The notes under the pieces were generated by a model. It did not search any database. It saw only the letters and a program-made list of their open reading frames with translations, and was not told where the DNA came from. A program made the position numbers and the translations under genes. This document shows positions 35,305 through 41,478 of a stretch of 64,000 nt of DNA, in pieces; within the stretch, counting starts at the first letter, position 1, and every line of letters starts with the position of its first letter. Origin of the DNA: Pocillopora damicornis (lineage: Eukaryota); the NCBI RefSeq assembly GCF_003704095.1, contig NW_020843420.1, forward strand, positions 1 through 64,000, given 5' to 3'.

Positions 35305-35442
35305 ATTAGTCCATAGTCAAGTGCAGACTGCAGGCACAACACAAAGAACTTTAGCAGTTTCTCCAGGCTTTACATTTAGCCTGGTTATTAGTTGGTCTTC
35401 TGCAGAATTAGTCTAGTAAGAAAGAGAAGTTATGTGTTAGTA
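35305..35442 (-). promoter_or_regulatory. Cluster of four ACUAAY Quaking response element cores in the QKI 3' UTR
   Basis: Plus-strand RTTAGT at 35305-35310, 35387-35392, 35407-35412 and 35436-35441 (the last reads UACUAAC in sense). One more at 34994-34999. Candidate minus-strand AATAAA at 34264-34269. Confidence 0.6.
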
Positions 35443-35919
35443 TCAATTACTTTACGTTAAATAGCAATGATGGAAAGACTGCTCATGTCCACATATTTTA
35501 CTCTCATATAGTCATTAATGCAAGCTTGTTAGATGAGGGAAGAAAAATTCTGTTTAAATTTACAAGGATAATACTAGTAAAGCTGTCTTCCATACAAGGC
35601 TTCATGAATGGAATTACAATTTCAATGTACATTTTGCTTCATGATATAAGTATATGAACTCAGGATAAAAGTTTTAGCAGTAATTACAATATGAAATTAC
35701 TGTCTCTTCCTATCAATTTATGAAAACTGTACTTAAAACCATTTAAACTCCAGGGAAGAAACACCTGTGAGTTTTTGTAAGGTGTAAGGAGTGATCAGAC
35801 TGACACTGCTTGAAAGATGATGGTGCAATTCATCAAATAATAATAGAGTCCTTAAAATTTTATTGTTTCAAACAGGTTCTACCTGAAGTAAGAATGATTT
35901 TATCAATGGCTAACTTACT

Positions 35920-38900: not shown

Positions 38901-41248
38901 TTGCCATCCAGTGATTTAATGCCTGTTCCTTAACACACTATGAAAAAACATCAAATTCCCACATAGGGTGTCCATGACAACTCATTTAAAAGAACTACTG
39001 TGAATCCAACTTATCATTTCTGTAAAGAGAGAAGTGAATGAAAAGACAAAAATCAATTTAGGTTCCTAATCTTGAAAGCAAAAACAGCATTTCAGTTTAG
39101 TTTTGGATATCAAACCTTAGTACAAAAAATGAGCAGGTAATAAAGCCTTTAAAAATATACATGAATTCTTTCAACAACTTCATTCCAATCTGAAACAAAT
39201 TCACCTACAGATAATAGTTACCTCAGACCAAAAGCAATTATGGTAGTTTATCTATTAATGATGCCAACTACAGAAAAATATTCAAAGGCAAAGTTGATAA
39301 CGAACAAATAAAAACAACTCCTTCAAGATTCTTACTATTTTTTGGTAAACAACTTCTACATTGCATCCAAAACTGCTGAAACAGAATCTCAAGGTTTCGA
39401 TTAAAAAGGATATGTTTACAAAGCCTAAATTAAATTTAGGAAAGTGGTCAACAGGCATTGGGGGAACATTAAAAAGATTTCATGATTGTTGACAGAAAGT
39501 AAAAAAGACAGGAAAAGAGCTGAAAATTGATGCTTTTGATTTATTTGCTTTCCTACCAATAAATCCTGACAAACACGACAACGATTTTAGTTTCTGAAGG
39601 CTGTGAAATACATCGTGACAAAAATATCCATGTCAGTGCCCTCTTTCAATTCAACGAAAATTGCACCCAGCTAAAAAAAACCACATTTGAAATAAAATGC
39701 TCAAAACCACAAATATCCTATTTTTCATCTGAAAAGCTCCTCTTAATTTTTGGTTGCACATGTCCGATTGCCAAGTTATAATTGTAATTATTTAGATTTG
39801 CTCTGTTTGGTCAGAATACGTGTCATGAAAAGCATCTGTCCCTAATCAAGATAAAGATCATTATTACACAAATTTCGACAAAGCAAGTTCCTGGGGGTGA
39901 ATTCCTCGAGAGCCACAAAACGAAACAATTGAACTGGCTTCAGCAAACGCTAAGAAAAATTCTAGGCACACCCTGAATACAACCATTTATGTCCATTAAA
40001 TCGTACTACATGTTCGAGCGCTCGCTAATAAATAAATCTCAGCTAAATCAGAACAAGCCATCAAATTTTCACAGTTATTTGACCCCGTCAAATTAGAAAC
40101 GAGACGAATTCCAAGCGTGACGATTTTCCTTCAAAGATAACATGTAATTTCATGGACCGTCAAGCGTTTTAAATGTTGAAACTGCTTCACAAAAGACTTT
40201 TCCAAGTAAAAGCTAATGTTTAAGCTTGTTTACATACAAGAATAACAACAAAACACGGTTGCAGCGAACTAACAAAAGTAACCAGTTTAATAAAGCCTGC
40301 ACGATCGGTCTCCTGACGGCCTCGTGAATACTCTAAATCGTATCTCCCTCTTAGTTGTGAGTTTATTTAGTTTCGGTTTATGCAAAATCGTGGGCCAGTA
40401 CATAATAAAACAAGAGCAAGCGAGTTATCAAAAAAGTGTGGCTTTCATATTACCAAATAAAATATTCATACATCCCACTGGGTGGAAAGAAATCTAGTTG
40501 AATGTAATAGAATACGAGTTAATGAAACAGAAAATCACAACAAGTTTGTTCACAATACAAGCAACCGAGATTCCAGTGTGCAAGTTTTAAGGGGGTAATA
40601 AATACATCTTTAACATAAGAAATCCTTCCAAAACTCTGCAGACAGACGAGAGCGCGCGGACCAACAAAGACGCATACTATAGATTAGTTTTGAAGGCAAC
40701 TGCAAAGAGCGCGTCGACCGACCCAATGTTCATTTTTCAATTTCAGCTTAACTAAATCTTTCCTAGGTACTAAGCAAAATGTCATATGTCCAACAAACCT
40801 GAAGTTGATCTCTTGTATTCCCTGGTGTGTCAGTGATGCTAACCTAAAACACGATCGTTGTTCGGTAAACACTGGAAATGGTGTCCGGATGTCGGGCAAA
40901 CAAATGGAAGATTTATGCTCCACGCTCGCTGGCCGCGATCGATTACATTTTTCGTCGCCGCGTTTTTCGCTTTAAATCGCGTTAGAACAAACTCTACTTC
41001 TGAAATGAATTAGATATTACCTCGCGAAGTTACATTTTTTTCTTCTGGGGATTATTTATGTTCATTTACCGATTATTTATAATAACTGCAGTTATTATTA
41101 TATTAAATTTGAAGTTAACTTGGCGCAACACTGTACCTTGATCCAGCAATCTTTCGGCGTGAAGAAATATCTTGGGCATTTTCGATACCGTTGTTTTGTC
41201 GCTGAGAAGTTCATTAAGATATTCAGGAGAAGCGACAGAACAAGACAT
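35920..41248 (-). CDS. QKI: Quaking / held-out-wings STAR-family KH RNA-binding protein, 8 exons, ~278 aa
   Basis: Exons 41248-41137, 38131-37983, 37646-37530, 37434-37291, 37198-37120, 36660-36577, 36315-36214, 35969-35920 (837 nt). QUA1 PEYLNELL...[28 protein letters not shown]...[11 protein letters not shown]...[14 protein letters not shown]2 [21 protein letters not shown]-terminus [16 protein letters not shown] (QKI-5-like PY-NLS). Confidence 0.93.
36186..36201 (-). promoter_or_regulatory. Bipartite QRE (UAAC-N5-UACUAAC) just downstream of the QKI exon 7 donor
   Basis: Sense sequence CTTG|gtgagtctgactTAACaagttTACTAAC. Confidence 0.6.
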
Positions 41249-41478
41249 TGTTGCTGTTATGGGTTAGTAGAACGTAAAAGGAAAACACATAAAAAAGCAA
41301 TAGCAGTTGTTCTACGCCTGAGCAAGTCTTGTGAACTTCGACATGTGCAACCAATGATTACTCGGCCAGGGAATTGGGCTCTGTTACTCGACCCAAGCTC
41401 TTCAGCCAGGGACCTTCAGCCAGCGTCTAAGCTATATATAGTTATTGTCTTACATGACGGGGTTAAATGTGTTCCACT
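41249..41478. promoter_or_regulatory. Bidirectional QKI/DNAJC8 promoter and 5' UTR region
   Basis: Divergent ATGs at 41248 (-) and 41479 (+), 230 bp apart. Confidence 0.7.

Follow-up and report, generated by a model that had tools for sequence, protein, structure and literature searches.

A conserved alternative donor at exon 1 of a coral quaking gene and its possible part in feedback control

We analyzed a window of 64,000 nucleotides (nt) from the coral Pocillopora damicornis (NCBI RefSeq assembly GCF_003704095.1, contig NW_020843420.1, positions 1 to 64,000 of the forward strand), which carries on its minus strand, from 41248 to 35920, a gene for a 278-residue protein of the quaking (QKI) type with eight coding exons. 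The feature of this gene with the strongest conservation, an alternative poison donor located in intron 1, was missed in a preliminary description of the same DNA. That description proposed an ancient autoregulatory circuit acting at three places marked by the QKI motif ACUAAY: site (a) just before the start codon, site (b) in intron 7, and cluster (c) in the 3′ untranslated region (UTR). Considering the RNA and conservation data below, we put the chance at about even (roughly 0.5) that QKI represses its own expression through a poison 5′ splice-site switch at exon 1.

The poison donor of exon 1

RNA contigs from six runs, which show the presence of a transcript and not its absence, level, or stability, joined exon 2 to two donors of exon 1, a proximal, productive one at 41137 and a distal one at 40799. 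The distal joint was present in all six runs, and its share of junction depth was 15%, 24%, 46%, and 35% in the four runs for which both joints are listed, these shares being fractions of summed contig depth and hence a rough measure. The features concerned are as follows.

41137..41248, minus strand: coding part of exon 1, with most of the QUA1 domain, ending at the productive (proximal) donor (RNA contigs, domains)
40799..41136, minus strand: 338-nt non-coding extension of exon 1 between the two donors, with an in-frame stop 60 codons from the ATG (6/6 runs)
40769..40804, minus strand: poison 5′ splice site (distal donor, 40799/40798) with the 30 nt of conserved intron that follow
40942..41117, minus strand: array of 12 UAAY half-site motifs, two being CUAAY, invariant in three corals

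The contig covering the extension overlapped exon 1 by 30 nt in 4/4 runs, with a depth of 22 to 57 inside and 0 to 5 past the distal donor, and we therefore read it as an extension of exon 1. In run X3, the depth of exon 1 (312) was near the summed depth of both joints (278).

For comparison, at least two orthologous loci were present among the matches listed from 598 candidate stretches in one metagenome scan, both at the 5′ end of the gene: L001, with exon 1 followed by 1.4 kb of intron 1, and L002, which spans exons 1 to 3, its exons 2 and 3 reading like the Orbicella protein P0015. In the three corals, the extension measured 338, 337, and 342 nt, with its frame stopping after 60, 45, and 49 residues; because both length and stop vary between species, we regard it as non-coding. 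Its identity to L001 and L002 was 0.83 and 0.87, rising to 0.97 and 0.93 in the 30-nt flank of the distal donor and falling to 0.41 and 0.51 in the next 169 nt, whereas 17 of the 32 fourfold-degenerate sites (53%) in exons 2 and 3 differed from L002 (Fisher P, 3e-8 and 5e-7).

A transcript is exposed to nonsense-mediated decay (NMD) when a premature stop precedes a downstream junction by more than 50 nt. In the three corals, 267, 311, and 304 nt separate the stop in the extension from the distal donor, and the region combines the sequence marks of a cassette for alternative splicing coupled to NMD, namely an alternative splice seen in RNA, a stop at sufficient distance from the junction, and non-coding surroundings conserved in two other corals.

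We also considered a shared restart codon within the extension and rejected it, no ATG being common to the three corals. Nor did we find a conserved RNA fold, the z score of the whole element being about 0 (−0.18; −0.29, 0.83, −0.87) and the covariation term unfavorable (2 of 149 pairs doubly changed), or any Rfam match at the gathering score within 32000-42000. Separately, the 5′ end of the transcript (41352-41321) can pair with the distal donor region (40802-40769) in each of the three corals (−17 to −19 kcal/mol), a pairing that would mask the poison donor; 1 to 3% of shuffles paired as well, and covariation lent it no support.

The UAAY array and the direction of feedback

The array lies just past the productive donor, within the first 200 nt of the extension. 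UAAY is the half-site of QKI (PMC2697983; papers are cited here by PMC number and for the excerpts of them that were available). All 12 UAAY motifs were kept in the three corals, the motif columns being identical at 46 of 46 positions, compared with 113 of 151 among the other columns. None of 196 circular shifts of the motif mask reached 12 (maximum, 11; mean, 5.8), and UAAY ranked first for conservation among comparable 4-mers. The motif was biased toward the sense strand of the extension (12 versus 3 antisense; P, 0.035). Against a background of 828,930 strand-bases, taken from 43 stretches of 3 other contigs of the same genome, 12 UAAY within 180 nt occurred in 2 of 4,401 windows and in none of 850 AT-matched ones. 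The motif enrichment tests below were chosen after the motifs had been seen.

We propose that rising QKI would load as dimers on site (a) and the half-site array, which flank the productive donor, and that this loading would shift splicing to the distal donor, giving the long form with its premature stop. The long form would be lost to decay or nuclear retention, with less QKI as the outcome. Site (a) may in addition dampen translation or its initiation, as proposed for GLD-1, and QKI may compete with SF1 at the branch point of intron 8 and thereby alter the 3′ UTR. That QKI binds the array and that the feedback is negative is what we infer. A wider scheme is put forward only tentatively: an anthozoan QKI homeostat, using a route that has not been described for bilaterian QKI and possibly originating in the ancestor of corals and anemones, in which the exon 1 poison switch with its half-site array would act together with twin 14-nt elements, one at the start codon and one at the 3′ UTR branch point (the latter through competition with SF1), and in which the RefSeq isoforms without QUA1 of Montipora and Exaiptasia would come from the same switch.

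Several observations weigh against self-limitation by QKI. The long form is abundant (15 to 46%), which agrees badly with efficient NMD, and in runs X1 and X5 the distal joint is the only one listed, a pattern that contig filtering may explain and that we do not read as absence of the productive joint. QKI bound downstream of an exon promotes that exon (PMC9786888), and by this positional rule the productive donor would be favored, i.e., the feedback would be positive. QKI would then bind the array and activate the productive donor, the poison form being the default at low QKI and the UTR elements serving as a brake. Mouse Qk5 is indeed required for the accumulation of Qk RNA and represses itself through its 3′ UTR (PMC5695090), and the abundance of the long form in bulk RNA agrees with such a scheme. 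On the other side, comparable cassettes are homeostatic (RPL10a, PMC4937301; SLM2/Sam68, PMC5199341), and many weak sites would suit a sensor of high concentration. We regard positive feedback as unlikely.

The array also consists of half-sites, two of them CUAAY, with no full ACUAAY core anywhere in the extension, and the same genome contains a KHDRBS-type gene (G000:C1507). The switch may thus be real and yet be run by another protein, such as this Sam68/KHDRBS-type paralogue, SF1, or a U-rich binder, which would make it a case of cross-regulation. Repeats of U(U/A)AA, of which the array has seven, are binding sites of SLM-2 and Sam68 (PMC2697983), and SLM2 cross-regulates Slm1 (PMC5199341). 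Those repeats show no strand bias (7 sense versus 5 antisense), however, whereas UAAY is strand-biased and fully conserved, and the best two full elements in this gene conform to the QKI consensus. Another binder is, in our judgment, also unlikely.

Further points concern DNA-level function. Other blocks of intron 1, 40599-40440 and 40269-40040, are conserved as well (0.73 to 0.81), and the RNA contigs, two of which begin inside the extension, are compatible with a transcription start there. The conservation would then reflect a promoter common with the head-to-head DNAJC8 gene, whose contigs start some 100 nt away from the 5′ end of QKI, together with a first-intron enhancer or internal promoter holding what we take to be TAAT-type and forkhead-like sites; the distal donor would serve an alternative first exon of a QUA1-less or non-coding RNA. 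RefSeq isoforms without QUA1, X3 of Montipora and X2 of Exaiptasia, start at the exon 2 methionine, and these models could result from an extended or alternative first exon. Other observations speak against the DNA-level account: conservation falls sharply 30 nt past the distal donor, UAAY is sense-biased in the extension and not in the other conserved blocks, the contig of the extension runs on from exon 1 without a break in 4/4 runs, with the depths in run X3 agreeing, and no restart ATG is conserved. We find this account quite unlikely. The two blocks without UAAY strand bias are possibly enhancers in their own right.

Finally, the conservation rests on two orthologous loci, both from stony corals and neither reaching the 3′ end of the gene. 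The conservation behind the proposed circuit, which the preliminary description called ancient, spans stony corals at the 5′ part of the gene, with no deeper span shown.

Self-limitation of splicing regulators by conserved unproductive splicing is well studied in bilaterians, and the listings from our searches of open-licence literature showed no report of it for cnidarian QKI. The cassette resembles the L10ARE of RPL10a/RPL-1 (PMC4937301), a conserved element between alternative 5′ splice sites of its own pre-mRNA that yields an unproductive product. Unlike the 39-nt L10ARE, for which binding and NMD were shown with L10a, the coral element is about 340 nt long, has 12 short repeats, and is known from genomic sequence and RNA contigs. 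It also recalls the SLM2/Sam68 feedback (PMC5199341), where a STAR gene has conserved regions rich in short UAA-type motifs and an alternative donor whose use gives an unstable RNA; there, however, the switch is placed at the final coding exon, to which it adds 3′ exons that are non-coding, whereas in coral QKI it lies at exon 1. Mammalian Qk5/Qk6 (PMC5695090, PMC9786888) share with the coral gene an orthologous protein, UACUAAC in their own transcript, a QKI-5-like tail at an aligned splice point, and alternative last exons. The mammalian control described in these excerpts acts at the 3′ end (tail isoforms and 3′ UTRs), with exons 1 to 6 in every transcript, and the exon 1 location of the coral switch differs from it. 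The cassette thus bears on whether mammalian and coral QKI control their dosage at opposite ends of the gene, and it could show whether feedback by STAR proteins is older than the bilaterians. Because the long form makes up a different share of the RNA in different samples, that share may also indicate how active QKI is in corals.

Full QKI motifs in the UTRs and introns

The motifs of the preliminary description were all found on the minus strand, with site (a) at 41269-41256, site (b) at 36201-36186, and the ACTAAY cores of cluster (c) starting at 35441, 35412, 35392, and 35310.

41249..41360, minus strand: 5′ UTR of QKI exon 1 (contigs colinear to 41360, 41359, and 41336)
41256..41269, minus strand: site (a), TACTAAC-CCA-TAAC, a putative QKI response element within the exon, 7 nt upstream of the ATG
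40683..40688, minus strand: sole ACTAAY of intron 1, absent from both other corals
36186..36201, minus strand: site (b), TAAC-N5-TACTAAC, in intron 7, apparently unconserved in Stylophora
35413..35918, minus strand: intron 8, in the 3′ UTR (joint in 4/4 runs)
35429..35442, minus strand: TACTAAC-ACA-TAAC, placed as a branch point of intron 8 would be (branch A predicted at 35437, 24 nt upstream of the exon)
35305..35412, minus strand: start of terminal exon 9a, with ACTAAY at 35412, 35392, and 35310
32824..32855, minus strand: first bases of an alternative, more distal terminal exon spliced to the donor of exon 8 (one contig, 1/4 runs)

The background rate of the core had been put at about one per kb; we measured 0.53 ACTAAY per kb (441 in 828,930 strand-bases). 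Across the whole gene (8,911 nt), neither ACTAAY alone (8 versus 4.7 expected; P, 0.11) nor TAAY (P, 0.25) was enriched. TACTAAC was (3 versus 0.43 expected; P, 0.01), and so was TACTAAC with a half-site within 20 nt (3 versus 0.18; P, 9e-4). ACUAAY with UAAY within 20 nt occurred five times against 1.8 expected, at site (a), site (b), 35441, 35412, and 35392. These five have the core and half-site of a QKI response element, whereas the intron 1 array, having no full core, does not. Four cores within 135 nt, as in cluster (c), were found on none of 86 background strands and in a fraction of 0.0005 of 2,000 shuffles. The suggested enrichment thus holds for the bipartite TACTAAC elements and the four-core cluster, and not for ACTAAY alone over the whole gene.

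The element at site (a) recurs at the first core of (c) with 13 of 14 bases unchanged. In 234 Mb of genome, the pattern TACTAACNCATAAC occurs exactly 8 times, including twice in the QKI gene on the sense strand, compared with 19 times for the reversed control; because it was built from these two sites, the copy count overstates its rarity. The six further copies (L049-L054) are candidate QKI targets. Elsewhere in the window, a tandem repeat of about 42 nt (106-936 and 7781-10173, plus strand) has ACTAAC in many of its units and inflates motif counts on that strand.

Intron 1 was said to hold a single core, which we confirmed at 40688. This core is probably a chance occurrence, and a role for it as an activator of the distal donor was rejected, as it is missing in both other corals.

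Site (a) had alternatively been viewed as a branch point for an acceptor at 41254-41255, with an upstream 5′ UTR exon. This was ruled out by the contigs of three of the four runs, which continue from exon 1 across 41255 to 41360, 41359, and 41336 with no joint or loose end (that of the fourth stops at 41217); since they run on unspliced, site (a) belongs to the 5′ UTR. It is invariant in L001 and L002, and the proximal 52 nt of the 5′ UTR, comprising a U-rich tract and site (a), are 98% identical (0.98 in each). In exon 1, only 3 of 16 fourfold sites differ from L002, compared with 17 of 32 in exons 2 and 3 (P, 0.03), indicating synonymous constraint. The comparison of core with flanks thus came out half as proposed: site (a) is invariant, and it is no more conserved than its flanks, sitting within a 52-nt invariant run, which also counts against assigning it a role of its own in the feedback. 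By this evidence, the 5′ UTR/exon 1 block is under selection, and the core of site (a) cannot be singled out in it. A conserved 5′ UTR STAR element by the AUG, paired with 3′ UTR sites, is known for GLD-1 (Jungkamp 2011, via PMC3462321); unlike those sites, the coral element would act on the mRNA of the regulator itself.

Site (b) lies downstream of the exon 7 donor, as described, at a distance of 13 to 28 nt instead of the 12 to 28 nt given. Its role as a control point is not borne out. The Stylophora gene prediction P0044 reads into intron 7, and, as judged from this protein, its codons differ at the half-site as well as at the core while most of their neighbors match. The cover of intron 7 was low, at 4 to 8% of spliced depth in three runs with none in run X3 (a gap that we do not read as absence), compared with 10 to 15% for intron 8. 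We therefore consider the three-point circuit as first written, in which site (b) would steer a switch of QKI-5/6/7-like tails, to be very unlikely, even though intron 7 falls where the vertebrate QKI tails diverge (isoform layout, PMC9786888) and P0017, a transcript-derived protein of another coral, ends by reading into intron 7; unspliced RNA could give the same end. No isoforms with different C termini from intron 7 were listed in the four runs, whose contigs show presence and not absence. Site (b) is probably incidental.

At the 3′ end, three of the four cores of cluster (c) lie in the mature UTR, as proposed, and the first lies within a spliced intron, 35918-35413. The branch-point reading fits this first core instead of site (a): TACTAAC/TAAC is followed by a pyrimidine tract and then the used acceptor, and the core at 35412 forms the first six bases of exon 9a, while ACTAAY occurred within 60 nt of none of the 8 other acceptor regions listed. 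ACUAA with a second site nearby at a branch point is the arrangement of competed branch points, and QKI may accordingly compete there; any UACUAAC branch point would show the same layout. In the described case of QKI/SF1 competition (PMC13004596), UACUAAC and an adjacent half-site are likewise found at a branch-point position, ahead of an acceptor with an alternative. The coral target differs from that case in being the gene's own 3′ UTR intron, with the protein unaffected and the alternative acceptor seen in 1/4 runs. The cover of intron 8 was not above that of introns 5 and 6. Its donor lies 1 nt after the stop codon, and the 3′ UTR joints should therefore not trigger NMD. The three cores left in the mature 3′ UTR are reminiscent of mouse Qk5, which represses itself through UACUAAC in its 3′ UTR (PMC5695090).

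Three minor observations were made here. In run X11, all 6 substitutions in 35383-35942 lie in 35600-35792, away from the acceptor (P, 0.05; a weak hint). Before the distal acceptor, at 32922-32915 (minus strand), eight bases stand between AG and GTAAGT like a micro-exon, for which no RNA support was seen. At 35136-35206, two runs carry different 33 to 36 nt in place of 66 to 69 nt of the 3′ UTR, probably an allele.

Identity of the gene, its other exons, and its neighborhood

The window gene is the QKI orthologue by its domains, structure matches, and protein identity, in agreement with the preliminary description; QKI orthologues were already known in cnidarians (PMC3636136, PMC4316625). The window protein is identical to P0040 (quaking-like; P. 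damicornis, P. meandrina, and P. verrucosa). Its 98%-identical Stylophora counterpart P0005 scored over the cut-off for both PF16544 (QUA1) and PF22675 (KH), and through it the gene is seen to have the QUA1 dimerization domain and KH-QUA2 of the QKI/HOW/GLD-1 subfamily of STAR proteins. Among PDB matches, QKI (4jvh) was best (E, 9e-68), ahead of T-STAR (4e-30) and SF1 (2.5e-23). Of the 22 RNA-contact residues of mammalian QKI (list in PMC6847458), 17 are identical, 4 conservative, and 1 changed in an alignment read by eye, consistent with the ACUAAC-reading residues of that subfamily. The C-terminal tail aligns with those of QKI-5 and How; no Pfam tail family matched any of the 5 proteins scanned. 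A family search of the genome gave three exon-level matches, i.e., the window QKI, the KHDRBS-type gene, and one unassigned. The splice joints of the coding exons were backed by RNA contigs, and those past exon 1 are as follows.

37983..38131, minus strand: exon 2 (RNA joints)
37530..37646, minus strand: exon 3, KH domain with GPRG loop (RNA joints)
37291..37434, minus strand: exon 4 (RNA joints)
37120..37198, minus strand: exon 5, QUA2 (RNA joints)
36577..36696, minus strand: exon 6, with acceptors at 36660 and 36696 (+12 residues, in frame; RNA joints, RefSeq isoform)
36214..36315, minus strand: exon 7 (RNA joints)
35919..35969, minus strand: exon 8, the final coding exon, which encodes the QKI-5-like basic tail and ends in the stop codon at 35922-35920 plus 1 nt (RNA joints, tail alignment)

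The alternative acceptor of exon 6 (36696-36661, minus strand) adds its 12 residues after QUA2; it was used in 3/4 runs and corresponds to RefSeq isoform X1 of Pocillopora and Stylophora. An element of intron 1 at 38527-38610 was matched by many unrelated transcript contigs, as expected of a dispersed repeat. The DNAJC8-like gene that stands head-to-head with QKI occupies 41458-42995 on the plus strand, and its first exon is conserved in place in L001 and L002; DNAJC8 and SF1 are chains of the same PDB entry, 7vpx.

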